Below are positions 1 to 28,365 of a stretch of 39,595 nucleotides of DNA, piece after piece. A program made the translations under genes and the position numbers. The notes below the pieces were generated by a model. The model saw only the letters and a program-made list of their open reading frames with translations, did not search any database and was not told where the DNA came from. Source of the stretch: a phage; the sequence record PZ544513.1; one strand, written 5' to 3'. The stretch's first letter is position 1. Each line of letters starts with the position of its first letter.

Positions 1-1731
1 ATGACTGCACGTATGAAGTCAGACTTCGTGTTCTTCCTGTTCGTCCTGTGGAAAGCTCTGTCGCTCCCAGTCCCGACTCGCTGTCAGATTGACATGGCGA
101 AGAAACTATCGGCTGGGGACAACAGGCGCTTCATCCTACAGGCGTTCCGTGGTATAGGGAAGTCCTTCATTACGTGTGCCTTCGTTGTCTGGAAGCTATG
201 GAACAACCCAGACTTGAAGTTCATGATTGTGTCGGCCTCAAAGGAGCGAGCCGATGCTAACTCCATCTTCATCAAGCGAATCATCGACCTCATGCCTCAG
301 CTTCAGGAACTCAAACCTAAGCAGGGACAGCGAGATGCGGTTATTAGCTTCGACGTGGGACCTGCCAAGCCAGACCACTCACCTTCGGTTAAGTCCGTTG
401 GTATCACTGGTCAGTTGACTGGTAGTCGTGCTGACATCCTGATTGCCGATGACGTGGAGGTTCCGAACAACTCAGCGACTCAGGCTGCACGAGACCGTCT
501 ATCAGAGCTTGTGAAAGAGTTCGACGCTATCCTGAAGCCGGGAGGTACGATCATCTATCTGGGTACTCCTCAGAACGAGATGACCCTGTACCGTGAGCTG
601 GAAGGTCGTGGGTACACCACTACTATCTGGCCCGCTCGTTATCCACGCGACAGGAAGGACTGGCAGTCTTACGGCGACCGTCTGGCTCCTATGCTTCAGG
701 CAGAGCTGGAAGAGGACCCTGAGTCCTTCTACTGGCGTCCGACTGATGAAGTACGCTTCGATGATACGGACCTGAAGGAACGTGAGCTGTCCTACGGTAA
801 AGCTGGCTTCGCTCTACAGTTCATGCTTAACCCGAACCTGAGTGATGCCGAGAAGTACCCTCTTAAGCTCCGTGACCTTATCGTAGCCGACTTGGACCCA
901 GCGTCCAGCCCAATGGTCTACCAATGGTTGCCGAACCCTCAGAACAAGCGTGAGGACGTTCCTAACGTTGGACTCATGGGTGACTCGTACCACACGTATC
1001 AGACTGTAGGTTCTGCCTTCAGCTCATACACCCAGAAGATTCTGGTCATTGACCCTAGTGGTCGTGGTAAGGATGAAACTGGATATGCGGTACTGTACCA
1101 GCTCAACGGCTACATCTTCGCTATGGAAGTTGGTGGTATGCGTGGTGGTTATGAAGACTCTACGCTGGAAGCCTTGGCTAAGATTGGTCGTAAGTGGAGG
1201 GTAAACGAATACGTCATTGAGGGTAACTTCGGTGATGGTATGTACCTTGAGCTATTCAAGCCTGTATCGGCCCGTATCCATCCTGCGGCTGTAACTGAAG
1301 TGAAGAGTAAGGGTCAGAAAGAACTACGCATCTGTGACGTTCTGGAGCCTATCATGGGGTCTCACAGACTTATCGTTAACGCTGCTGCTATCGTCCAAGA
1401 CTACCAGACAGCCTCTGACAAGGATGGTGTTCGTAACCCTATCTACTCTCTATTCTATCAGATGACACGTATCTCTCGTGAGCGTGGAGCCTTGGCACAC
1501 GATGACCGACTTGATGCGCTGGCTATCGGTGTACAGTTCTTCGTTGAGTCGATGGCTAAGGATGCCAACAAAGGCGAACGTGAAGTCACTGAGGAATGGC
1601 TGGAGGAACAGATGGAGAACCCACGGAAAGGCTTCGAGTCCATCCACACTGAGTTCTGGGACAATGGGGTCCGGGTAACTCACGATACGGACGACGAGCT
1701 TGGACTAGGGTCATACGTTACGTTCCACTAG
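1..1731 (+). CDS. 19: Large terminase subunit (T7 gp19-like), 5-prime truncated by the window edge; the start lies at 39563..39595
   Basis: 576-aa ORF colinear with recalled T7 gp19 ([30 protein letters not shown] Walker A-like, [26 protein letters not shown]); reading frame is open to window position 1 and continuous with the ORF starting at 39563. Confidence 0.93.
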
Positions 1732-1825
1732 CTGAATGAATAACTATAGGTGAAAGCTGCATGAATAAGCAGTTAGTAACCTATAGTTACTACCAGTCTA
1801 ACATACTGTTTTACAAGGAGTTTGG

Positions 1826-1848
1826 ACTTAACTATCACTATAGGGAAG
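1826..1848 (+). promoter_or_regulatory. Phage RNAP promoter (phi-OR-like) cTTAACTATCACTATAGGGAAG, +1 near 1843
   Basis: Matches the 11-member promoter family of this genome and the T7 promoter core CACTATAGGGAGA; lies downstream of gene 19 near the right genome end, as phi-OR does in T7. Confidence 0.7.
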
Positions 1849-2028
1849 ACCCCCGGTTACTTATAGTATTACTGTAGTGAATATACATATGCAGACTTTA
1901 TGCAAGACCTTAGGAGGCAGACTCCGAGTTCTTACCTAAGGCTTGCACAGATGGAAGGAGGGTGATATTAATCATAATCCCTCCAATACAGATAGTCACC
2001 GACCATAGATACAGGAGGTATGTAGCAT

Positions 2029-2187
2029 ATGGCAAAGACCAAAGCTGTACTTAAAGCTCTGGCGACCAATCGAGCTACATACAGGTTTCTTGCTGCTGTT
2101 CTACTTGCTGCTGGCGTTACTGCTGGAAGTCAGTGGGTCGGGTGGGTCGAGACTCTCGTATGTTCTCTGGTGTCTGAGTGTCGTTAA
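2029..2187 (+). CDS. Small hydrophobic protein (52 aa), gene 19.5-like by position
   Basis: ATG at 2029 preceded by AGGAGG (2013-2018); 52 codons, stop TAA 2185-2187; hydrophobic core LAAVLLAAGVTAG; lies between gene 19 and the terminal repeat; not in the ORF track because under 60 aa. Confidence 0.4.
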   Translation: MAKTKAVLKALATNRATYRFLAAVLLAAGVTAGSQWVGWVETLVCSLVSECR

Positions 2188-2437
2188 CGCCGTAATGGTA
2201 ACAATCAACGAAAGTAAGACCTAAGGTCAGTTCATAGCTGACGCTACTCTACTGACCTTAGCTACTGTAGTCAAGGACTTTAGGTAACACCTTAAAAGAA
2301 GCTCACTTAGGGTCATCCTACTTATTGGTCTATCCTAGTGTCGCCTGACCTACGGTCCTTGACCTACAGTAGCTGGTTCCTAAGGAGGGACGATGAGTTT
2401 TTGACCAAAAGTTTGAGACCACATCTCACAGTTCAAG

Positions 2438-2586
2438 AACATCAAGTCTCCCCCATAGGCCTCTTTCAGTCCAGACCAAAGGCCCTACCCCAGTCTATCA
2501 TAAGGTTGGACCGATGGTCAAGACTTCAGGTCAACGATAGGTTGTGGCTATGGCTTAGGGAAGGACGATAGGTTGGGACTATGGGT
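2438..2586. repeat. Direct terminal repeat, copy 1 (right genome end), 149 bp
   Basis: 2438-2586 is identical to 2588-2736 by direct reading (period 150 bp, one spacer base at 2587); T7-like genomes carry direct terminal repeats of about 150-230 bp. Confidence 0.8.
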
Positions 2587-2587
2587 A

Positions 2588-2736
2588 AACATCAAGTCTC
2601 CCCCATAGGCCTCTTTCAGTCCAGACCAAAGGCCCTACCCCAGTCTATCATAAGGTTGGACCGATGGTCAAGACTTCAGGTCAACGATAGGTTGTGGCTA
2701 TGGCTTAGGGAAGGACGATAGGTTGGGACTATGGGT
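2588..2736. repeat. Direct terminal repeat, copy 2 (left genome end), 149 bp
   Basis: Exact tandem copy of 2438-2586; followed by short-repeat array and host-type promoters as at the T7 left end. Confidence 0.8.
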
Positions 2737-2959
2737 CTGTCTTTGAGTCTCTATCTGTATCAGACCTTGAGTCACTACCTACAGTCTAACTACCTACAGT
2801 CATCGACCATCGGTAATGCCGCTACCTACAGTCATCGACCTACGGTTAATAGACACAAGGATATAGACTTAAGGTCTAATACATGTTAGTCAAAGACTAT
2901 ATCCTCTTAGTCACTATGGGGCCGACGATAGCTTAATCAATATTATTTAAGATTACCTA

Positions 2960-2989
2960 TTGACTACAGGTCCAGACTATGGCTTAATA
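2960..2989 (+). promoter_or_regulatory. Putative host sigma70 early promoter (TTGACT, 17 nt spacer, CTTAAT), weak -10
   Basis: -35 TTGACT at 2960-2965 with an AT-rich upstream tract; located between the terminal repeat and the first early gene, like T7 A1-A3. Confidence 0.25.
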
Positions 2990-3100
2990 GCTTCCGTCAA
3001 CACGACACGGCAACAACCGGATAGTGAAGACGCCGGGTCATCCCGGTTAAGTAGACAGCCTGATAAGTCATACGAACAACAGGCAGATGACAGAAAGTAG

Positions 3101-3130
3101 TTGACAAGATGTACCGACTTAAAGTAGTAT
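3101..3130 (+). promoter_or_regulatory. Putative host sigma70 early promoter (TTGACA, 18 nt spacer, TAGTAT)
   Basis: TTGACA 3101-3106, TAGTAT 3125-3130 followed by GTACCACAT, reminiscent of T7 A2/A3 early promoters; correct position and orientation for early transcription. Confidence 0.45.
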
Positions 3131-3243
3131 GTACCACATCAACACGAAACAACGGTGACGACCAACACTGAAACGGTCTACCTGAAGTCCTCTGACTGAA
3201 GGGAATGCTCTTTAACAATCTGGATAAACTCTTAATGTGCGCC

Positions 3244-3310
3244 GACAGTGATTAACTACAGGGTCTTTGAGTCTACATCTGAAGGCCCTGACTGATAGTC
3301 ACTAGCAACC
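3244..3310 (+). other. Putative RNase III processing hairpin, early-region repeat copy A
   Basis: About 66-nt element CGACAGTGATTAACTACAGGGTC...GGCCCTGACTGATAGTCACTA with imperfect inverted symmetry (AGTGA/TCACT and CAGGG/CCCTG stems with internal loop); three copies, each immediately upstream of an early gene. Confidence 0.5.
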
Positions 3311-3324
3311 TAAGAGGATTCATT

Positions 3325-3603
3325 ATGAGACTGAACAAAGCTACAGCAGAAGCCTTTCGCAAGGAGCTTGAATCAAGATTATTGTGTGGAGTGGCGGAAG
3401 GAGCCGCTCGATATAAAGAGAATGGTCTAACGTTCAAGCGCTTTATGTGGGATTGCTATCACGGAGTGGGCCATAAAAAGTCGCAGGAAATAATCACCAG
3501 CAACAATGCGGAAGTGCAAGTGATAGGAGGATACATGGCTAACGTGAAGGATTCACACATAGAGACAATGCTTAAGAATGCACTTAAAGATGTAGCCTAC
3601 TAG
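3325..3603 (+). CDS. Hypothetical early protein (92 aa), first gene behind the host promoters
   Basis: ORF with RBS AAGAGGA 8 nt upstream of ATG; preceded by repeat copy A; no recognisable motif. Confidence 0.6.
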   Translation: MRLNKATAEAFRKELESRLLCGVAEGAARYKENGLTFKRFMWDCYHGVGHKKSQEIITSNNAEVQVIGGYMANVKDSHIETMLKNALKDVAY

Positions 3604-3658
3604 TGATTAACTACAGGTCGTTAGACTGATAGCGGCCTGACTGATAGTCACTAACACA
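3601..3658 (+). other. Putative RNase III processing hairpin, early-region repeat copy B (diverged)
   Basis: TAGTGATTAACTACAGG...CCTGACTGATAGTCACTAACA shares both flanks with copies A and C; immediately upstream of the ocr homolog. Confidence 0.45.
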
Positions 3659-3683
3659 TAATTAACTTTGAGAGGATATAACT

Positions 3684-4190
3684 ATGGAACGTAATGCTAA
3701 CGCATACTATGAGCTGCTGGCTGCAACCGTTGAGGCATTTATCGAGCGTATTCAGTACGACCACCTGACTCAAGATGATGACTACAGCGATGCGCTGCAT
3801 GAGGTCGTAGACGGTCAGGTTCCACACTATTACCACGAGATTTTTACGGTGATGGCTGCTGATGGTATAGACCACGAGTTCGAAGACTCTGGGCTGATGC
3901 CTGAAACCAAGGACGTAACGCGTATCCTACAAGCTCGCATCTATGAGGCGCTTTATAACGATGTGTCTAATAGCTTGGATGTAGTCTGGTTTGAGGATGA
4001 AGAGGCAGAAGAAGAGGATGAATATTGGGTAGTTGACGCTAAAACAGACGCAATAATTGTGCAAGCTGTAGCTCTTGAGGTCGCTACTGCATGTACCAAG
4101 GTTAACTATGCGGCAGGTCGCCACCTGAAGGTGGAAGACATCAATGATAACGTAGTGTTCGACCCTGCGGCTGAGGACTGCGAGCGATGA
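3684..4190 (+). CDS. ocr: Ocr-like DNA-mimic anti-restriction protein (T7 gp0.3 homolog) with a C-terminal extension of about 50 aa
   Basis: Core [43 protein letters not shown] is near-identical to recalled T7 Ocr ([43 protein letters not shown]); acidic; 168 aa versus 117 aa in T7. Confidence 0.88.
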
Positions 4191-4357
4191 TAACTTACGG
4201 TTTATGCCAGCACCACGTCACCAACGCCCGACTTATGGTCAAGACCGGGCGGTTAACCCATGATGAGACTATGCGTCTCCTGAAGGTGGTCTACAAGCGC
4301 CGCAAGCGCATACACGACAGTTTGCACGCTGAGGATAACCAACAATGCTCCAGATAA
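4187..4357 (+). CDS. Hypothetical small basic early protein (56 aa)
   Basis: ATG at 4187 overlaps the ocr stop (ATGA); 56 codons to TAA 4355-4357; under the ORF-track size cutoff. Confidence 0.25.
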
Positions 4358-4422
4358 CTTATAGCAGCGAACAAGCGTTCTACGACGGGTGCTACGAGAT
4401 GATGAAGCGCGATACTTGCTAG

Positions 4423-4488
4423 CGACAGTGATTAACTACAGGGTCTTTGAGTCTACATCTGAAGGCCCTGACTGATAGCCACTAACAA
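4423..4488 (+). other. Putative RNase III processing hairpin, early-region repeat copy C
   Basis: Identical to copy A except 2 positions over 66 nt; immediately upstream of the ORF at 4503. Confidence 0.5.
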
Positions 4489-4502
4489 CTGAGAGGACAG
4501 AT

Positions 4503-4730
4503 ATGAACACAATCACTGGTGCCATAGCCAAAGGTTTTCGAGCAATTTTCAGTGAATCGCAAGAAGTATGCACCAATCATAAATTCGTACTTTCTTGCGT
4601 AGTAGGGGACGAGTTTGACGGATTCGATAAACTGGTGGTTTGCGACCATTGTGGACAAGAGGCTATCCAACGCTCAAACGGTAAATTTGAATTAATAGAC
4701 GATAGCCTTACAGAAGGAGACGGCGAGTAA
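4503..4730 (+). CDS. Hypothetical early protein (75 aa), possible Cys-rich zinc-binding motif
   Basis: ORF with RBS GAGAGGA; contains C-x8-C ... CDHC cysteine pairs; no homolog recognised. Confidence 0.6.
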   Translation: MNTITGAIAKGFRAIFSESQEVCTNHKFVLSCVVGDEFDGFDKLVVCDHCGQEAIQRSNGKFELIDDSLTEGDGE

Positions 4731-4862
4731 CCTAGATAAACAGGAGAGAACCAAATCGTAGCTTGACCATAACGCTGACAGGTGGATACTGAGTGATAGA
4801 CGAGAGGCCGTCGAATGATAGGTGGCCTCAAAGATTATCACTTGAATTAATAGGAGTTAACT

Positions 4863-4952
4863 ATGAGTGTGGGATATTGGGTCTGCCTAGCGCCAGTTAT
4901 CTGGATGATAGGCTATGGGTTATACGACTGTATTAAACGGAAATCACTATGA
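4863..4952 (+). CDS. Hypothetical small membrane peptide (29 aa)
   Basis: ATG 4863 preceded by TAGGAG; hydrophobic WVCLAPVIWMIGYGLY; stop overlaps the next ATG (ATGA at 4949-4952). Confidence 0.3.
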   Translation: MSVGYWVCLAPVIWMIGYGLYDCIKRKSL

Positions 4953-5146
4953 GTATTGCACTATTGATAGCCATAGGCTATGGACTTATCGCATACGTGC
5001 TGGTGAGAGACATCAACAAGGCACGTAAAGTCTATAAATTCAACTATGTACGTATGGTCCGCTGGACTGTACGTCAACCTAACGGACGATTCCTGCGCAA
5101 TTTAGCGAACGTCTGGGATATAGCAACTCTTGGGAGCAAACTGTAA
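4949..5146 (+). CDS. Hypothetical early membrane protein (65 aa)
   Basis: N-terminal hydrophobic segment IALLIAIGYGLIAYVLV followed by basic tail; translationally coupled to neighbours. Confidence 0.55.
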   Translation: MSIALLIAIGYGLIAYVLVRDINKARKVYKFNYVRMVRWTVRQPNGRFLRNLANVWDIATLGSKL

Positions 5147-5472
5147 TGAACAAGTCATACGGGATTAATCTGGTACACTCTATGGACGCAGAAATGAACA
5201 TGTTAAGCCTACTGGCTACCGGGTATCGTCACGGAACGTCAAGTCACACCGCACGTCAACAGCAGGAGAGGGACCGTGTACTACAGGCGCGACTCCGGGC
5301 AGAGGGCCATAAGTCCGAACTGATGTGTCTGGCGTATGGCGGACGACCGATCACTGACGATGGTAAACTTCTGGTATCAGGCTGGAAGGCGATAGACCAA
5401 CGGTCAACCATCAAGCACACGACTCACGGTGACTTCAGCCATCTCCACGCTAACCCACTGATATGCAAGTGA
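5146..5472 (+). CDS. Hypothetical early protein (108 aa); sits where T7 has gene 0.7 but has no kinase motifs
   Basis: ORF starts at TAATG overlap with the previous gene; no recognisable domain. Confidence 0.55.
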   Translation: MNKSYGINLVHSMDAEMNMLSLLATGYRHGTSSHTARQQQERDRVLQARLRAEGHKSELMCLAYGGRPITDDGKLLVSGWKAIDQRSTIKHTTHGDFSHLHANPLICK

Positions 5473-5477
5473 TTATG

Positions 5478-5500
5478 ACTTAACTATCACTATAGGACTC
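5478..5500 (+). promoter_or_regulatory. Phage RNAP promoter-like sequence upstream of the RNA polymerase gene (ACTTAACTATCACTATAGGACTC)
   Basis: Full match to the promoter family core except GGAC instead of GGGA at +1..+4; about 70 bp upstream of gene 1. Confidence 0.5.
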
Positions 5501-5569
5501 AAGGTCTAAGACTCCAAGTGAAAGACCAAAGAGACTTTAAGTGAAAGACTAATAACAAGGACTTTAAGT

Positions 5570-8251
5570 ATGAGCGTCATCTCTATTGACAAACACGACT
5601 TCTCTGATGTGTCGAACGCCATTGAGCCGTTTAACCTGCTGGCTGACCACTACGGGCAAGACCTTGCAGTCAAACAGCTTCAGCTTGAGCATGAGGCCTA
5701 CACTGAAGGTGAGCGACGTTTCATCAAGAACCTTGAGCGTCAGACCGAGCGAGGGGAACTGGCAGACAATCAGGTCGCCAAGCCTTTGATGCAGACTCTG
5801 GTTCCTAAGATTGCGCAAGCCGTCAAGGAGTGGCACGAAGGTCCAGACGGGAAGCTGTCAACCTCACGTCCGAGCGTAGCGTTCACCATGTTAAGCACTG
5901 AAGAGAAGGCCGTCAAGGACCGCTCTCTTCGCATCTCCTGCGAGTCTGCTGCGGTTATCATACTGAAGGTCATCCTCTCCAAGCTGGTCAAGCCTGAAGG
6001 TATACCGATTACACCGATGGCCTCCGCGATAGGTCGCACACTTGAGGATGAAATCCGATTCGGTCGCATTCGTGACAAGGAGAAGGAGCACTTCAAGAAG
6101 GCGATAGCTGATAACCTGAACAAGAGAGCCGGGGCATCATACAAGAAAGCCTACATGCAAGCGGTCGAGACATCCATGCTGGAGCAAGGCCAACTAGAAG
6201 ATGCGTGGGGAACTTGGAGTCCGACCGAGGCTGTCCACGTTGGAATCAAGATGCTGGAGATTGTCATACAGTCAACACAACTGGTCGAGCTTAAGCGTTA
6301 CGGTGCTGGCAATGCAGCGGCTGACGTTGAGATGGTCCACCTGTCAGACTTCTGGGTCAAGAAGATGGCACAACGAGGATTCAGCCTTGCGGGTATCGCC
6401 CCAGTCTACCAGCCTTGCGTCGTTCCGCCTAAGCCGTGGACTGGTGTCGTAGGCGGTGGGTATTGGGCCAAAGGTCGAAGACCATTGCCACTGATTCGCT
6501 TAGGGTCTAAGTCTGCGGTAGCACGTTATGAAGACGTATACATGCCTGAAGTCTATGAAGCTGTGAATATCATCCAGAATACACCTTGGAAAGTGAACAA
6601 GAAGGTATTGGACGTGGTGAACAGGGTCGAGAAGCTGAACAACACGCCTATTAATGACATCCCTCAGATGGAACCGCTGAAGCCTGAGGACTATGCTGGT
6701 GAAACCGAGGAGGAACTCAAGGCATGGAAGAAGGCTGCTGCTGGTATCTATCGCCGCGAGAAGGCCAGACAGTCACGCAGATTATCACTGAGCTTTATCG
6801 TTAACCAAGCAAACAAGTTCTCTCAGTTCAAGGCCATCTGGTTCCCGTACAACATGGATTGGCGAGGTCGTGTCTACGCTGTCCCGATGTTCAACCCTCA
6901 GGGTAACGACATGCAGAAGGGGCTCCTGACTCTGGCAGTCGGCAAGCCTATTGGTGCTGACGGTTTCAAATGGCTGAAGGTCCACGGTGCAAACTGTGCG
7001 GGTGTCGATAAAGTCACCTTCGATGAGCGCATCAAGTGGGTGGAAGACAACCACGAAAACATCATGGCTGCTGCTAAGGCACCGATGGATAGCATTGAGT
7101 GGTGGGGCAAGTTAGACTCTCCGTTCTGCTTCCTAGCGTTCTGCTTCGAGTATGCTGGCGTAATGCACCACGGCTTGTCTTACTCCTGCTCGCTGCCGAT
7201 AGCGTTCGATGGGTCCTGCTCTGGGATTCAGCACTTCAGCGCTATGCTTCGCGACCACATCGGTGGACATGCAGTAAACCTGACGCCATCCGGTAAGGTC
7301 CAAGACATCTACCGCATCGTGTCTGACCGCATTGAGGAGGAGCTTAAAGTCCTACTGGTTAACGGTACGGACAACGAGATGGTAACTCACGAGGACAAGA
7401 AAACTGGTGAGATTACCGAGCGTCTCAAGCTGGGGACACGAGAGCTTGCCCGTCAGTGGCTGACCTACGGTATGTCACGAAAGGTCACTAAGCGTTCGGT
7501 CATGACTCTGGCCTACGGGTCGAAAGAGTACGGCTTCGCAGACCAAGTTTACGAGGACATCGTGATGCCAGCGATTGACTCAGGGTCTGGCGCTATGTTC
7601 ACTGAACCAAGCCAAGCATCTCGCTTCATGGCTAAGATGATTTGGGAAGCTGTGAGTGTGACCGTAGTTGCTGCGGTTGACGCGATGAAATGGCTTCAGG
7701 GTGCTGCCAAGCTGCTTGCTGCTGAAGTGAAGGACAAGAAGACTGGAGAAATCCTGAAGCCTTGTCTTCCGGTACACTGGGTCACACCTGATGGTTTCCC
7801 TGTCTGGCAGGAATACCGAAAGAAGGACACCACTCGTCTGAACCTGATGTTCTTAGGGTCATTCAACCTTCAGCCTACCGTCAACAAAGGCACGAAGAAA
7901 GAGCTGGACAAGCACAAGCAGGAGTCAGGCATTAGCCCGAACTTCGTCCACTCACAAGATGGTAGCCACCTCCGCAAGACTGTAGTCCACACGCACCGCA
8001 AATATGGCGTGATGTCATTCGCAGTGATTCACGATAGCTTCGGGACCATCCCGGCTGACGCTGAGTATCTGTTCCGTGGAGTCCGTGAGACGATGGTCGA
8101 GACCTACCGCGACAACGATGTGCTGCTTGACTTCTACGAGCAGTTTGAATACCAGCTTCACGAGAGCCAGAGAGACAAGTTGCCTGAGCTTCCTAAGAAA
8201 GGTAAACTGAATATCGAAGACATCTTGTCTTCAGACTTTGCATTCGCTTAA
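5570..8251 (+). CDS. 1: Single-subunit DNA-directed RNA polymerase (T7 gp1 family)
   Basis: 893 aa; colinear with T7/T3 RNAP throughout (PMFQPCVVPPKPWTG, FPYNMDWRGRVYAVPMFNPQGNDM, AFCFEYAGV.HHGLSY, DGSCSGIQHFSAMLRD, NFVHSQDGSHLRKTVV, IHDSFGTIPADA, C-terminal DFAFA). Confidence 0.98.
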   Translation: MSVISIDKHDFSDVSNAIEPFNLLADHYGQDLAVKQLQLEHEAYTEGERRFIKNLERQTERGELADNQVAKPLMQTLVPKIAQAVKEWHEGPDGKLSTSRPSVAFTMLSTEEKAVKDRSLRISCESAAVIILKVILSKLVKPEGIPITPMASAIGRTLEDEIRFGRIRDKEKEHFKKAIADNLNKRAGASYKKAYMQAVETSMLEQGQLEDAWGTWSPTEAVHVGIKMLEIVIQSTQLVELKRYGAGNAAADVEMVHLSDFWVKKMAQRGFSLAGIAPVYQPCVVPPKPWTGVVGGGYWAKGRRPLPLIRLGSKSAVARYEDVYMPEVYEAVNIIQNTPWKVNKKVLDVVNRVEKLNNTPINDIPQMEPLKPEDYAGETEEELKAWKKAAAGIYRREKARQSRRLSLSFIVNQANKFSQFKAIWFPYNMDWRGRVYAVPMFNPQGNDMQKGLLTLAVGKPIGADGFKWLKVHGANCAGVDKVTFDERIKWVEDNHENIMAAAKAPMDSIEWWGKLDSPFCFLAFCFEYAGVMHHGLSYSCSLPIAFDGSCSGIQHFSAMLRDHIGGHAVNLTPSGKVQDIYRIVSDRIEEELKVLLVNGTDNEMVTHEDKKTGEITERLKLGTRELARQWLTYGMSRKVTKRSVMTLAYGSKEYGFADQVYEDIVMPAIDSGSGAMFTEPSQASRFMAKMIWEAVSVTVVAAVDAMKWLQGAAKLLAAEVKDKKTGEILKPCLPVHWVTPDGFPVWQEYRKKDTTRLNLMFLGSFNLQPTVNKGTKKELDKHKQESGISPNFVHSQDGSHLRKTVVHTHRKYGVMSFAVIHDSFGTIPADAEYLFRGVRETMVETYRDNDVLLDFYEQFEYQLHESQRDKLPELPKKGKLNIEDILSSDFAFA

Positions 8252-8266
8252 CAACAGGAGAAGTAT

Positions 8267-8497
8267 ATGTCAATGAAACTTGTAGCACACAACAGGGTAT
8301 TCAACGATGGGTCGGGACGTTGCCATGTAGAGCTGACTTATAAGGATTTAATCATTCTCCGAGACAGATTACAGTCGGGTGTGACTGGGTGGATTCAACC
8401 TAACGAGTACAACCTTATAGCTTCGATTGATGAAGTTCTTAACGCGTGGATGGAAGACGAGCGCATTCAGTATCCGTCATTCCCTCTAATTAGATAA
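8267..8497 (+). CDS. Hypothetical protein (76 aa)
   Basis: ORF with RBS GGAGAAG directly after gene 1; no T7 counterpart recognised. Confidence 0.5.
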   Translation: MSMKLVAHNRVFNDGSGRCHVELTYKDLIILRDRLQSGVTGWIQPNEYNLIASIDEVLNAWMEDERIQYPSFPLIR

Positions 8498-8507
8498 GGA
8501 GAGAGTT

Positions 8508-8723
8508 ATGAAATTTGCACACAAGCATACTGGCGTTAATGGTGGGACTCAAATCGTGACCGTAACAGAACACAACGGCAAGGGTCTGGTGAAGACCACG
8601 GTCATCCCTACCGAGATGTCCAAGCAGCTTAACATCCCGTTCAAGACTCTTGTATATCTGGTCGAGTCCAGCCACGAGAAGTACCTGAAGGACGCAGTGT
8701 CCAAGCTGGAGCAGGCCAAATGA
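8508..8723 (+). CDS. Hypothetical protein (71 aa)
   Basis: ORF with RBS AAGGAGAGAG; no T7 counterpart recognised. Confidence 0.5.
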   Translation: MKFAHKHTGVNGGTQIVTVTEHNGKGLVKTTVIPTEMSKQLNIPFKTLVYLVESSHEKYLKDAVSKLEQAK

Positions 8724-8798
8724 CAGACATACAGTTACTGGCCCTGTGGCTGGGAGCACTCGCAGTATTCACTTTAATCCAACGCAGAAGAGGTTAAC

Positions 8799-8821
8799 CC
8801 TAAACTATCACTATAGGCTTA
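8799..8821 (+). promoter_or_regulatory. Phage RNAP promoter (phi1.1-like) CTAAACTATCACTATAGGCTT
   Basis: Member of the conserved promoter family; +1 near 8816. Confidence 0.7.
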
Positions 8822-8860
8822 GACTCAAGGTCATGACTCAAAGTCGTGGCCTTCATGATT
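8821..8860 (+). other. Conserved leader hairpin AGACTCAAGGTCA-loop-TGGCCTT (putative RNase III site, R1.1-like position)
   Basis: 7-bp stem AAGGTCA/TGGCCTT (one G-U pair) with conserved flanks; one of 3 copies at 8821, 16046 and 39024. Confidence 0.45.
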
Positions 8861-8894
8861 AACCCTAAATAAACACTACTGGAGATTTAACCGT

Positions 8895-9074
8895 ATGTAT
8901 CAGAACACTATCAACTTCGAGCGCATCCGTGAACGTCAGCAGACTGAAGGTTACATCCCTAAGGGCCGCAAGCTGAACAAGACTAAACGTGGCGGTGGTA
9001 TCAAAGGCGCTTTCAGAAACGCTGAAGGTAAAGACTCTCTGGTCAACCAAGAGAAATACTTCGTAGGAGCATAA
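8895..9074 (+). CDS. 1.1: gp1.1-like small basic protein (59 aa)
   Basis: ATG 8895 with RBS GGAGA; contains KGRKLNKTKR matching recalled T7 gp1.1; under the ORF-track size cutoff. Confidence 0.55.
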   Translation: MYQNTINFERIRERQQTEGYIPKGRKLNKTKRGGGIKGAFRNAEGKDSLVNQEKYFVGA

Positions 9075-9078
9075 CTCT

Positions 9079-9342
9079 ATGGGCCGACTTTATAGTGGCA
9101 ACATCAACGCTTTCAGAGCAGCGTGTAACAGGCTTTATCAGTTAGACTTCTGCGTGATACAGCAGGACTGGTACGACGCGCATCTTCGGAAAGAGTGCAT
9201 GAGACTTCAAGTCGAGGACCGAGCTGGTAACATCTTCGCGCTTGAGACCTTCGCACACTACGATGAAGACGTGCTGTATAATACCGCAACCGACTACCTC
9301 AACGGTCTCGCTGACCATCTCGACACATGGAGCAAAGAATAA
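9079..9342 (+). CDS. 1.2: Inhibitor of host dGTP triphosphohydrolase (T7 gp1.2 homolog)
   Basis: MGRLYSGNINAFRAA..LYQLDF.VI..DWYDAH.RKEC.RL..EDR.GN ... YDEDVLYN..TDYLN closely tracks recalled T7 gp1.2 (MGRLYSGNLAAFKAA...). Confidence 0.85.
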   Translation: MGRLYSGNINAFRAACNRLYQLDFCVIQQDWYDAHLRKECMRLQVEDRAGNIFALETFAHYDEDVLYNTATDYLNGLADHLDTWSKE

Positions 9343-10430
9343 TGACAACTATCAAAACTAACCCTCACCGCGCTGTAGATTACTCTGAGTCTGGAATTAA
9401 GAAGGCACTGGAAGCAGCCGGGTCTCTGGAAGCTGAAGTGAAGTACGATGGTGTGCGCCTGAACCTCCTGGTACTGCGTGAAGGTGAGACCTACTGGCTT
9501 AGCCGCGAGTCGAAACCTCTACCAGCCTTGGAGTGGATGAACTCTGAGTTAGGTAATGCGTGGACCCAAGCTGACTGGCGATGGTTCCTGCGTCAATCCG
9601 GCTACGAAGGTGTGGGCATGATGATTGATGGCGAGGTCATGGTCAAAGGTGTAGACTTCAACACCTCCTCAGGTCTCATCCGAACGAAGTGGCTCAAGCC
9701 TAACAACGAGGAGTTCGCTGAATACTATTCGCCGGCGACTGGTGGAAAGAAGCTCCCGTTCTGGGGATCCCGGTCACGACTTCAGGTTGTGGTATATGGC
9801 GTTGTCGATATGACAACCATAGCAGACCCGAAAGCAGAAGGTCCTATCCATAGCGTAACCCGCCTGAAGGCTGAAGCTATCGTCCCTCTCCTCCAGAAAT
9901 ACTTCCCGGAAATCGACTGGGTTCTGTCTGAGTCACACACGGTCTATGACCTTGAGTCGCTCAACTCCCTGTACGAACAGAAGCGTCTGGAAGGACATGA
10001 GGGTCTGGTAGTCAAGGACCCACTGGGTAAGTACAAGCGTGGCAAGAAGTCTGGCATGTGGAAAATGAAGCCTGAGGAGACCATCGACGGGACCGTGTGT
10101 GGCCTCGTGTGGGGGACTCCTGGTAAGGCTAACGAAGGTAAGGTCATCGGCTTTGAGGTTCTACTGGAGGATGGCATGGTGGTCAACGCCTGTGGTCTGA
10201 CTGAAGAACAGAAGGACGAGTTTACGGCTAAGGTCAAGGAGGACACGCTTGCTGCGGTTGGCATCTTTGCGCCGTACGGCATTGGTGGTAACGAACCTTG
10301 CTTCGATAACCCATACGAAGGCTGGCAGTGTGAAGTCCTCTTCATGGAGAGGTTCCCTGATGGCTCCCTTCGTCACCCCAGCTTCAAGTGCTGGCGTGGA
10401 ACCGAAGACAACCCAACGGTGAAGTCATGA
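9342..10430 (+). CDS. 1.3: ATP-dependent DNA ligase (T7 gp1.3 homolog)
   Basis: Start MTTIKTNPH aligns with T7 ligase MMNIKTNPF; adenylation motif KYDGVR; EGHEGLVVKDP, KRGKKSGMWKMKPE, SLRHPSF; ATG overlaps the gp1.2 stop (TAATG). Confidence 0.95.
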   Translation: MTTIKTNPHRAVDYSESGIKKALEAAGSLEAEVKYDGVRLNLLVLREGETYWLSRESKPLPALEWMNSELGNAWTQADWRWFLRQSGYEGVGMMIDGEVMVKGVDFNTSSGLIRTKWLKPNNEEFAEYYSPATGGKKLPFWGSRSRLQVVVYGVVDMTTIADPKAEGPIHSVTRLKAEAIVPLLQKYFPEIDWVLSESHTVYDLESLNSLYEQKRLEGHEGLVVKDPLGKYKRGKKSGMWKMKPEETIDGTVCGLVWGTPGKANEGKVIGFEVLLEDGMVVNACGLTEEQKDEFTAKVKEDTLAAVGIFAPYGIGGNEPCFDNPYEGWQCEVLFMERFPDGSLRHPSFKCWRGTEDNPTVKS

Positions 10431-10606
10431 GTACACAACTTTATATCAACATAGCAAGTGGTCAACTCTACGCTGTGGTAAATGGCGAGCTGTGGTATCG
10501 TAAACTCAAGAAGTGGGCCAAGTCCTACTACGATGAAGAGACAATATCAACCATGAGTAATCGCTACCGTAAGGCTGCTAAGGTGAACAACTTTAAGATG
10601 CGTTAA
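10427..10606 (+). CDS. Hypothetical protein (59 aa), gene 1.4-1.6-like position
   Basis: ATG 10427 overlaps the ligase stop (ATGA); the ORF-track start at 10388 is in the same frame but inside the ligase gene. Confidence 0.45.
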   Translation: MSTQLYINIASGQLYAVVNGELWYRKLKKWAKSYYDEETISTMSNRYRKAAKVNNFKMR

Positions 10607-10609
10607 CGT

Positions 10610-10650
10610 CAACCCAGTGGTCTTAGGACTGCTGGGTTTCTTTGCTTCTG
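10610..10650 (+). terminator. Putative early terminator (TE-like) hairpin AACCCAGTGGTC..GACTGCTGGGTT followed by a U-rich tract
   Basis: Stem of about 11 bp followed by TCTTTGCTTCT; position matches the T7 TE terminator after gene 1.3. Confidence 0.4.
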
Positions 10651-10665
10651 GGCCACCAGCTAGAC

Positions 10666-10688
10666 CCTAAGCTATCACTATAGGACAA
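10666..10688 (+). promoter_or_regulatory. Phage RNAP promoter CCTAAGCTATCACTATAGGACAA
   Basis: Promoter family member with one upstream substitution (AAGCT for AAACT). Confidence 0.65.
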
Positions 10689-10714
10689 CCCTAACCGACC
10701 AAAGGAGAAACCTT

Positions 10715-10969
10715 ATGTCTAAAAACTTAATGTTCAACCGATCTACTCGAAGCTTCCACCTGTCGCATAGCCCATTCAGCTTCCATAAAGCTAATCAACC
10801 ATTACCCCGCTTTGGTAAGACAGTGGCTCTGTCTCCAGCAGTTCATGCGCTAGTCACCCGCAAGTCTATGCTGAAGGCTATGGATAAAGAACAAGTTGAT
10901 GTGCCTGTGGTCATTACAAAATGGCCTCGCATTAAGCTGGCACTTCTGGTAATTAAGGAGGCGCTCTGA
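10715..10969 (+). CDS. Hypothetical protein (84 aa)
   Basis: ORF with RBS AAAGGAGA; function unknown. Confidence 0.55.
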   Translation: MSKNLMFNRSTRSFHLSHSPFSFHKANQPLPRFGKTVALSPAVHALVTRKSMLKAMDKEQVDVPVVITKWPRIKLALLVIKEAL

Positions 10970-11301
10970 TGACATACTGTGATAGCACCACATACTGTGA
11001 AGCGTGTAATGGTGACGACCGCTTCCCGCACGTTGGTAAACTTGTAGGTAACAAACTACAAGAAATTGATGACGTCCGCAAGCCGTCCCACTATCAGGTC
11101 TTTGATAGCGTGGAATCCATTGAGATTATCGCACGGTCAATGACTGTGAGTGAGTTCCGTGGGTTCTGCATGGGTAACGTCCTGAAGTATCGACTCCGGG
11201 CTGGTAAGAAGTCCGAACTGGCTACTATGGAGAAGGACCTGAACAAAGCATCCTTCTATCAGAAGCTGTTCGACTTGCATAAAGGTAAGTGCTATGCTTA
11301 A
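10969..11301 (+). CDS. Hypothetical protein, possibly gp1.7-related (DUF3310-like, KPSHYQ motif)
   Basis: 110 aa with KPSHYQV...IEIIA...GNVLKYRLRAGKK pattern recalled from the DUF3310 / T7 gene 1.7 family; ATG overlaps the upstream stop (ATGA). Confidence 0.5.
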   Translation: MTYCDSTTYCEACNGDDRFPHVGKLVGNKLQEIDDVRKPSHYQVFDSVESIEIIARSMTVSEFRGFCMGNVLKYRLRAGKKSELATMEKDLNKASFYQKLFDLHKGKCYA

Positions 11302-11381
11302 TGATATTGTGTATTACTGTGTAGTATGCGCCGGAGTTGGAGCACTAATCCTTTTAATATATTGGGCCATAGAGGTGTAAT

Positions 11382-28342: not shown

Positions 28343-28365
28343 CCTTAACTATCACTATAGGGACT
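28343..28365 (+). promoter_or_regulatory. Phage RNAP promoter (phi13-like) CCTTAACTATCACTATAGGGACT embedded in a 12-bp perfect inverted repeat
   Basis: Promoter family member; flanked by AAGGGCCTATAG (28326-28337) and CTATAGGCCCTT (28364-28375). Confidence 0.7.

Follow-up and report, generated by a model that had tools for sequence, protein, structure and literature searches.

Three small genes behind the RNA polymerase gene of a K1F-like phage include a conserved, almost never annotated 25-codon micro-gene

The locus behind gene 1

This analysis concerns three short open reading frames (ORFs) that lie between gene 1, which encodes the single-subunit phage RNA polymerase, and a phi1.1-type phage promoter in a phage DNA of 39,595 nucleotides (sequence record PZ544513.1; the whole of this stretch is referred to as the window). 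The three are called ORF1, ORF2 and, for the last and shortest of them, the peptide gene. A region of 701 bases around them agrees without a mismatch (100% identity) with several Escherichia phages assigned to the species Kayfunavirus LM33P1, while its identity to LM33_P1 itself is 99.7%. It is matched by 215 phage records, nearly all of which belong to K1F-like podophages that infect Escherichia, Salmonella, Enterobacter or Citrobacter. Judged by these matches, the window is a Kayfunavirus, i.e., a K1F-like phage of the T7 type. The genes on which the argument turns are the following:

5570 to 8251, plus strand: gene 1, single-subunit phage RNA polymerase, 893 aa (ORF list; RNA polymerase annotation in identical GenBank records)
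8267 to 8497, plus strand: ORF1, 76 aa, ATG start (ORF list; phrog_28104)
8508 to 8723, plus strand: ORF2, 71 aa, ATG start (ORF list; phrog_8082)
8720 to 8797, plus strand: peptide gene, 25 aa, ATG start, MTDIQLLALWLGALAVFTLIQRRRG (ORF list)

Gene 1 ends in a TAA stop codon (8249-8251), and a Shine-Dalgarno motif stands before each of the three starts that follow: AGGAG at 8256-8260, 6 nt 5' of the ATG of ORF1; AAGGAG at 8496-8501, 6 nt 5' of the ATG of ORF2; and GGAG at 8708-8711, 8 nt 5' of the ATG of the peptide gene. The coding part of the peptide gene comprises 25 codons including the initiator Met (8720-8794) and is followed by a TAA stop (8795-8797). An earlier, sequence-only reading of this DNA had counted 24 codons at 8720-8794, which is one codon short, and with its stop the gene extends to 8797. 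The same reading had described an ATGA overlap with the upstream ORF; this can be read directly in the sequence, as the ATG of the peptide gene (8720-8722) shares bases with the TGA of ORF2 (8721-8723).

Evidence that the three ORFs are protein-coding genes

The homologous region was gathered from GenBank phages and IMG/VR contigs, which gave a main set of 31 loci; the phages CR8 and LET1 and one metagenome (Logan) contig were added beyond this set. The ratio of nonsynonymous to synonymous changes (pN/pS) was calculated as a pooled Nei-Gojobori estimate, and for each ORF its own frame was compared with both shifted frames. In-frame values were low throughout: 0.36 for ORF1 (1.19 and 1.31 in the shifted frames), 0.33 for ORF2 (1.55 and 1.68) and 0.30 for the peptide gene (1.11 and 0.94). 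Half of the variant alleles in the peptide gene (32 of 64) are synonymous, compared with an expectation of 27% (binomial p = 1e-4), and leaving out the most divergent sequence raises the share to 30 of 52 (p = 4e-6). No synonymous excess is seen in the other two frames of the peptide gene (p = 0.39 and 0.84). The low in-frame pN/pS together with the synonymous excess implies purifying selection at the protein level on all three.

This pattern of variation identifies ORF1, ORF2 and the peptide gene as genuine, tightly packed protein-coding genes, which are predicted to form the 3' tail of the gene 1 message. The sequence-only reading had attributed good ribosome-binding sites to the ORFs at 8267-8497 and 8508-8723, and here the ORF list, the Shine-Dalgarno motifs and the in-frame pN/pS agree. 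For the peptide gene, the features by which microprotein genes are recognized come together, i.e., in-frame purifying selection, a kept start, a kept length and a ribosome-binding site.

Conservation and annotation of the peptide gene

The peptide ORF is intact, with 25-26 codons, in each of the 31 loci checked, and the Logan contig, CR8 and LET1 keep it as well. Its start codon is ATG or GTG and overlaps the upstream stop codon whatever the C-terminal length of ORF2 (66, 71 or 81 aa in total), and a GGAG or GAGG motif is found 6-12 nt 5' of the start in every locus displayed, despite the differing ORF2 residues that are encoded there. When an 85-nt peptide segment was searched by blastn against the phage collection, its DNA was found in 222 phage records, compared with 220 for ORF2. 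A tblastn search of the same collection with the 25-aa peptide gave no match, probably because of low-complexity masking, and a pattern scan of IMG/VR found the peptide only on contigs of 39-40 kb from the same type of phage.

Several copies are strongly diverged, namely those of Kosakonia phage Kc166A (MSDSLWLVIWLALLVVYIIRQRRRG), a metagenome contig (VTDNQLWLTLWSAFLITFIVFQRRRG), and Citrobacter phage CR8, a Caroctavirus (MTYLQLFALWMGALAVFTLIQQRRG). They carry many nucleotide changes, yet the length, the hydrophobic core and the C-terminal tail are kept. Many silent changes are found in Kc166A, the Logan contig, CR8 and LET1, for example in the Arg codons, which read CGC-CGT-AGA in place of CGC-AGA-AGA.

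Annotation has largely passed over this gene. A single variant of the peptide, gp10 of Escherichia phage GA2A, occurs among the 15 billion proteins of a collection from which the two commonest variants are absent. Several GenBank records (for example MZ234009, as 22664BS1_023, and Providencia phage EPr2) annotate a 38-aa ORF with a GTG start at 8746..8862. Since this ORF runs in frame +2 relative to the peptide, where pN/pS is about 1, and crosses both the promoter and the hairpin described below, it is probably spurious and masks the real 25-codon gene. The peptide family would thus have been missed because gene callers either skip it or call the spurious overlapping ORF. Comparison of the loci establishes the peptide gene as a predicted 25-codon micro-gene that is conserved across Kayfunavirus and in the Caroctavirus CR8 and is almost never annotated.

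The close association with ORF2 might suggest that ORF2 and the peptide form an obligatory two-part unit, with the peptide either fixing ORF2 to the membrane or serving as the tail anchor of a frameshift fusion. Such a unit would account for the nearly one-to-one co-occurrence of the two (220 and 222 phage records) and for the stop/start overlap, which is kept in all Kayfunavirus loci with any C-terminal length of ORF2. However, in CR8 an unrelated 45-aa ORF (annotated as '1.05', no database matches) replaces ORF2 (loci L042 and L052; 2864-3078 in L042), and the stop codon of this ORF overlaps the start of the unannotated 25-aa peptide gene. As CR8 keeps the peptide without ORF2, the peptide does not depend on ORF2. 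Moreover, peptide variants (LLALWLGALAVF and WLALWLAFLAVY) do not track ORF2 variants, and in Kc166A the overlap reads ATGTCTGA, which places ORF2 and the peptide in a relative frame unlike that of the others. No slippery heptamer is found at the overlap, and both the start codon, ATG or GTG, and the Shine-Dalgarno motif before it are kept. The frame difference in Kc166A, the missing slippery site and the kept initiation signals point to separate initiation and rule out a frameshift fusion, and an obligatory two-part unit in general appears improbable.

ORF2, a genus-wide basic protein

ORF2 matches the profile phrog_8082 with an E-value of 4.7e-42 over profile positions 1-66 of 66, and all 11 diverse ORF2 members that were tried match the same profile. 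The family spans 220 phage records, in which identity goes down to 44%, as well as 157 protein clusters, and many of these clusters come from contigs of about 40 kb. Its place after gene 1 is kept in all Kayfunavirus loci checked; the Caroctavirus CR8 has the unrelated ORF mentioned above in this position. The N-terminal 45 residues are strongly conserved and the C-terminal helix is variable, so that the length is 66, 67, 71 or 81 aa; ORF2 of the window is basic, with an isoelectric point (pI) of 9.5. By these comparisons, ORF2 is a predicted basic protein of 66-81 aa that occurs throughout the genus. A paper on a Citrobacter phage lists homologues of ORF2 and of gp1.06 (see below) without a function, and the peptide is not listed there (PMC4925675).

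The AlphaFold (AF2) model of ORF2 is confident (mean predicted local distance difference test, pLDDT, 93.2) and has the topology b1-b2-b3-a1-a2, i.e., three antiparallel strands followed by a short and then a long helix. A Foldseek search of the PDB with this model gave no significant match (best E 0.25), and the matches in BFVD are uncharacterized phage proteins only. One of these, a candidate match in ECBP5 (ECBP5_0016) selected for its length and pattern, follows the helicase gene and not the polymerase gene, hence there is no positional conservation with ORF2. A double-stranded RNA-binding domain was considered and rejected: seven such entries are among the top 50 PDB matches, but all have E-values of 0.5-1.3 and a query-normalised template modelling (TM) score of at most 0.51, and the N-terminal helix of the alpha-beta-beta-beta-alpha fold is missing in ORF2. 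Likewise, a likeness to the XLF head or to an integrase core was dismissed (E > 0.25, poor TM score and root-mean-square deviation), as it reflects a generic motif of three strands plus a helix.

ORF1, an accessory cassette

ORF1 matches phrog_28104 with an E-value of 2.1e-56 over profile positions 1-76 of 76, and the same profile is matched by all seven ORF1 members tried, including some that are only 36-37% identical. By tblastn, only 40 phage records carry ORF1, with identities of 84-100%. Among 5.8 billion proteins, a word-indexed search yielded nine clusters, and four more when a 47%-identical variant served as the query; an exhaustive phmmer search found five representatives among 1.84 billion at 50% identity. 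The sequence-only reading had not recognized the ORFs from T7, and indeed ORF1, ORF2 and the peptide are not T7 genes. Its description of the two longer ORFs as orphans, on the other hand, has to be given up in view of the 220 phage records for the family of ORF2 (phrog_8082) and the 40 for that of ORF1 (phrog_28104).

ORF1 is acidic (pI 5.5) and is carried by 7 of the 31 loci. All relatives with a readable context have it directly 3' of gene 1, where it forms a clean insertion or deletion, with its own Shine-Dalgarno motif, between the stop codon of gene 1 and the Shine-Dalgarno motif of ORF2. ORF1 is missing from K1F and from most relatives, in which the gene 1 stop lies 11-18 nt from the ATG of ORF2. 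As far as the aligned loci tell, ORF1 is an accessory cassette of a minority of relatives.

The accessory nature of ORF1, its early position and its variable slot would suit a role in counter-defence, and the top PDB matches of its AlphaFold model in Foldseek are two structures of Tad1 from a Clostridium botulinum prophage (8kbf_A and 7uav_A; 26% identity over 50-53 columns, probability 0.47-0.57). ORF1 might accordingly be pictured as a small Tad1-like sponge for immune signalling nucleotides with anti-Thoeris activity. However, these matches are non-significant (E = 1.2-1.5, query-normalised TM score 0.45), and the model on which they are built is mediocre (pLDDT 67.6, with an N-terminus below 50) and consists of a beta hairpin and two helices. 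ORF1 has about 60% of the length of Tad1, a PDB profile search with ORF1 does not retrieve Tad1, and Pfam and PADLOC are negative. With a non-significant structural match and no profile backing, a Tad1-like fold is rejected, and the sponge role is regarded as very improbable.

The N-termini of ORF1 and ORF2 look alike by eye only (K-L/F-V/A-A-H ... N-D/G-G). A descent of the two as diverged tandem paralogues was rejected, as hhalign gave probabilities of 0.1-0.9% for the two alignment pairs. In the GenBank record OR594182.1 (L003 of the locus set, marked UNVERIFIED), the positions of the misc_features are shifted from the sequence, for example with 'nucleotide kinase' placed over ORF1 and ORF2; its feature table is therefore unreliable.

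Relation to the T3 gene 1.05 family

ORF1 and ORF2 hold the same slot as gene 1.05 of phage T3, between gene 1 and gene 1.1, and an ORF2 homologue is labelled '1.05' in phage CR44b, which raises the question of whether one or both could be diverged members of the T3 gene 1.05 family. BLASTP of ORF1 and ORF2 against T3 gp1.05 gave no alignment at E <= 100, and a search of Pfam, including PF25755 (Phage_T3_1_05), found nothing for either at E <= 0.1; as a positive control, a 156-aa ORF of the locus L011 matches PF25755 at E 8e-26. The true homologue is in fact a separate gene of 156-164 aa ('gp1.06' in Dev2), which lies between the peptide gene and the promoter and coexists with ORF2 and the peptide gene in 15 of the 31 loci (e.g., L011, 2795-3265). 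Membership of ORF1 or ORF2 in this family is thereby ruled out, with a negligible remaining probability. A gene 1.05-type affiliation was the outcome that the sequence-only reading had itself named as speaking against its view, and neither a T3 gp1.05 alignment nor a PF25755 match was found. The window is without the PF25755 gene and instead has a junction at 8797-8800, which looks like a precise loss of gp1.06.

Signals around the three genes

The features that bear on the expression of the three genes, and the genes that follow them, are:

3101 to 3130, plus strand: sigma-70-like promoter, 10/12 matches
5479 to 5496, plus strand: phage-RNA polymerase promoter-like site, CTTAACTATCACTATAGG, one mismatch from the K1F-type consensus
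8799 to 8821, plus strand: phage-RNA polymerase promoter of the phi1.1 type, CTAAACTATCACTATAGG at 8800-8817, exact match to the K1F-type consensus
8816 to 8864, plus strand: predicted R1.1-type hairpin, upper stem 8827-8837 / 8843-8853, minimum free energy -17.7 kcal/mol, z = -3.6
8865 to 8882, plus strand: second promoter-like sequence, CTAAATAAACACTACTGG, loose pattern match in a phi1.1B-like position
8895 to 9074, plus strand: T7 gene 1.1 homologue (K1F 'gp1.15'), the next gene 3' (Pfam PF08200 Phage_1_1, E 6e-11; phrog_4383)
9079 to 9342: gene 1.2 homologue (PF10922), with the ligase gene further downstream
10611 to 10648, plus strand: TE-like intrinsic terminator after the ligase gene, 12-bp stem and T-rich tail

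The sigma-70-like promoter at 3101 and the TE-like terminator at 10611, the latter placed like the TE of T3, which also follows gene 1.3, put the three ORFs within the early unit, i.e., in a class I location. On the plus strand between these two, no terminator-like site was found in the scanned parts (1500-5600 and 8000-11200). The phage-promoter pattern has 12 matches in the window, compared with 0.08 expected by chance. One promoter-like site lies at 5479, 74 nt 5' of the gene 1 ATG, and the same variant recurs at 1827-1844 and 28344-28361; the site at 5479 implies that the phage polymerase, too, can transcribe gene 1 and the three ORFs. In T7, by contrast, gene 1 is not known to have a phage promoter just upstream. 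The sequence-only reading had placed the ORFs on an early extension of the host-RNA polymerase transcript, upstream of the first class II promoter. Of this, the early unit from 3101 to 10611 stands, with the qualification that the phage promoter at 5479 also feeds the ORFs, whereas the statement about the first class II promoter falls, as phage-type promoters are already present at 1827 and at 5479-5496.

The RNA between the promoter at 5479 and gene 1 has no unusual structure: an RNase III-like element was considered there and rejected, as the fold is no better than that of shuffled sequences (z = -0.1). The promoter of the phi1.1 type is annotated at the same place in ASO2B and CR44b, and, if T7 is taken as the model, transcription from it would start at G8816. 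The stretch at 8865-8882 varies among relatives and merges into the Shine-Dalgarno motif of gene 1.1, and it is probably a degenerate and not a working promoter.

Directly after the promoter at 8800 follows the hairpin, which is homologous in sequence to the annotated R1.1 RNase III site of T3. Its consensus consists of two stems, in which 14 of 14 pairs are kept among 16 sequences and two pairs show compensatory changes, and on these grounds 8816-8864 is a predicted RNase III processing site of the R1.1 type. The annotation of 8827-8853 as a rho-independent terminator in ASO2B was rejected, since no T-run follows and the terminator scan does not pick it. The R1.3 site of T3 has the same AAGGTC...GGCCTT core as this hairpin.

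Two further observations concern the window at large. It is circularly permuted relative to the LM33_P1 record, with position 8200 of the window corresponding to 5555 of LM33_P1, hence its first ~2.6 kb (approximately 1-2645) probably represent the genome's right end. Another very short and hydrophobic ORF, of 28 aa (MLNDIVYYCVVCAGVGALILLIYWAIEV), lies at 11294-11380, where its ATG overlaps the end of a 110-aa ORF (10969..11301); it could be a further membrane micro-gene that lacks annotation.

The peptide as a candidate membrane protein

The hydrophobic core of the peptide reaches a Kyte-Doolittle mean of 2.1-2.9 in its best 15 residues. The N-terminus is acidic (MTD), and between D3 and R22 runs an uncharged stretch of about 17 residues (I4-Q21), which is short for a span. 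The C-terminal QRRRG is near-invariant, with QQRRG or QSRRG in a few copies, and substitutions within the core exchange one hydrophobic residue for another. With MTD before the core and RRRG after it, the positive-inside rule predicts a single span with the N-terminus outside and the C-terminus inside. The sequence-only reading had proposed a hydrophobic single-pass peptide, and the Kyte-Doolittle core and the layout of charges uphold this in the form of a conserved single-span candidate.

Small hydrophobic toxins such as TisB, Fst and Ibs share this architecture, in which a single hydrophobic helix stands between a short N-terminus and a charged tail, and further ORFs of this tiny, hydrophobic sort occur in the T7 group, among them the one for the 25-aa protein of T3 gene 1.5. 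The peptide could therefore be imagined as a toxin that perturbs membranes in the manner of type I toxins or holins, which depolarizes or permeabilizes the inner membrane without a specific partner and thereby serves host shut-off or the timing of lysis. However, expression of the peptide would begin early and go on from phage promoters, while genome entry and replication of T7-type phages require an energized membrane. Nor is an antisense RNA or any other restraint evident for the peptide, and an Rfam search of 8000-9200 found no RNA family. A toxin of this kind is therefore considered unlikely, if less so than the two-part unit discussed above.

Interpretation

The best explanation overall, to which a probability of about 0.6 may be given, is that these are three real genes with early expression and host-directed roles. 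The host RNA polymerase would transcribe ORF1, ORF2 and the peptide gene early, and the phage polymerase would add transcripts from the promoter at 5479. By analogy with T7 and T3, in which RNase III cuts at R1.1, cleavage at the R1.1-type hairpin would define the 3' end of the message and leave gene 1, ORF1, ORF2 and the peptide gene on one processed mRNA. The peptide would be made by its own initiation and/or by termination-reinitiation at the AUGA, and it would cross the inner membrane once, leaving the short N-terminus outside and the RRRG tail inside. There, it may bind a conserved enterobacterial inner-membrane component to the benefit of the phage, be it in host take-over, exclusion or counter-defence; possible targets are an envelope synthesis or division machine, a transporter, or a membrane-anchored defence effector. 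ORF2 might act as a soluble binder of a conserved host macromolecule, and ORF1 as an accessory factor for host range or counter-defence.

Within this picture, the binding of the peptide to a conserved host component of the inner membrane is favoured over its rivals, but it is proposed tentatively and at clearly less than even odds. The same reserve applies to the suggestion that the peptide represents an undescribed family of early phage transmembrane effectors, present in Kayfunavirus and Caroctavirus and independent of the upstream gene.

Several points weigh against this explanation. The functional roles of the three genes are its least certain part, with the target and the benefit arrived at purely by inference. 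The literature on early genes of K1F and Kayfunavirus, on the peptide sequence and on small phage membrane proteins yielded no functional data on the three genes; searches of Pfam, NCBIfam, PADLOC and the PDB (sequence and profile) gave no match for any of the ORFs, and Foldseek with the models of ORF1 and ORF2 gave no link to a characterized family. At 15-18 residues, the hydrophobic core is short if it is to cross a membrane. The silent-site divergence of the peptide gene (0.30) is lower than that of ORF2 (0.48), and 152 of the 222 records match the 85-nt peptide segment at 95% identity or more. Finally, in about half of the relatives the AGAGG contained in the terminal AGA AGA GGT provides the next gene with its Shine-Dalgarno motif, which lies 4-8 nt 5' of gp1.06 if this gene is present or, in MII_004, of the directly following gene 1.1. 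The last codons thus double as a Shine-Dalgarno motif, and part of the conservation is at the level of the nucleic acid.

The latter observations raise the question of whether the 25-codon ORF is kept for reasons in cis, as a ribosome relay, a Shine-Dalgarno carrier for gp1.06 or gene 1.1, a promoter-upstream sequence or a recombination linker between modules, with a peptide that itself has no function. The element AGAAGAGG at the 3' end of the gene, before the next ATG in gp1.06 loci and before gene 1.1 in MII_004, would suit such a role. So would the final codons CGC AGA AGA GGT (8783-8794), which are near-invariant and include a tandem of the rare AGA (8.7% of the Arg codons of the phage), and so would the identity of the 85-nt segment, which is retained even where the ORF2 proteins are only about 45% identical. 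However, the window and about half of its relatives have no gene within ~100 nt 3' of the peptide gene, and yet the entire ORF is kept. The variation in the core is mostly silent or hydrophobic-for-hydrophobic, with the in-frame pN/pS of 0.30 against about 1 and the synonymous excess (p = 1e-4) reported above, and in Kc166A, CR8 and the locus L031 the length, hydrophobicity and the QRRRG or QQRRG tail outlast many nucleotide changes. Reuse as a Shine-Dalgarno motif does not explain these silent and conservative changes in the core. For the near-invariant AGA-AGA pair, the use as a Shine-Dalgarno motif in other genomes accounts only in part. Retention purely in cis is accordingly judged about as improbable as an obligatory unit with ORF2, and the explanation by three genes with host-directed roles, the peptide among them, is preferred.

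Significance of the locus

Two of the three genes are ordinary, as ORF1 and ORF2 join other hypothetical early proteins of K1F-like phages in families that are already known. The peptide gene, on the comparative evidence, is a real, conserved and nearly unannotated micro-gene of a known general kind. The useful result is a 25-codon micro-gene with clear purifying selection, whose DNA is carried by about 220 sequenced Salmonella phages and coliphages of the therapeutic type. If the peptide does act on a conserved target in the host membrane, it would be a new early factor of take-over or counter-defence in a group of phages that is widely used in therapy and engineering, and it would also show a route by which a small peptide can disturb an enterobacterial membrane process. 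In addition, the locus is a compact case of cassette turnover right behind the polymerase gene, with ORF1 present or absent, ORF2 replaced in CR8, and the T3 1.05-like gene present or absent.

Comparison with known systems

The order of promoter, hairpin and gene 1.1 is the same in the window as at R1.1 of T7 and T3. In T7 and T3, however, the promoter follows gene 1 almost directly (phi1.05 in T3), whereas up to three genes intervene here. The T3 gene 1.05 protein and Dev2 gp1.06 are likewise encoded by a small early/middle gene between gene 1 and the phi1.1/R1.1 signals, but they have no homology to ORF1, ORF2 or the peptide.

For ORF2, the closest known counterpart is K1F gp1.1 (YP_424917.1), which is 98.6% identical and holds the same place after gene 1. 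CR44b gene '1.05' and Dev2 gp1.1 belong to the ORF2 family as well, the label '1.05' in CR44b being positional only, and between the phrog_8082 family and ORF2 there is no material difference. ORF1 is 100% identical to a 'Phage protein' of LM33_P1 and 93% identical to an 'unknown product' of EcoDS1; together with phrog_28104 these make up a very narrow family, of which ORF1 is a member.

For the peptide, a precedent is provided by Gp11 of the Staphylococcus aureus phage PhiNM1, an early small phage membrane protein with a target in the host envelope (PMC11237401). What is proposed for the peptide is alike, in that an early, small membrane protein would act on a host membrane process, but this is an analogy only: the two are not homologous, the host of PhiNM1 is Gram-positive, and Gp11 is larger. 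The T3 gene 1.5 protein (25 aa, MWLILFAIVATLGLMVADDNIWPDC) is, like the peptide, the product of a tiny hydrophobic ORF in the early/middle region, and it shows that such micro-genes do get annotated in the T7 group. It has no evident sequence likeness to the peptide by eye, its gene is located after TE and phi1.5, and its C-terminus is acidic, opposite to the RRRG of the peptide. The annotated relative is gp10 of Escherichia phage GA2A (YP_009324944.1, a hypothetical protein of 25 aa, MTDLKWLALWLAFLAVYTLIQRRRG), which belongs to the same family, lies in the same place and is 76% identical to the peptide of the window, and which is the only annotated copy found.

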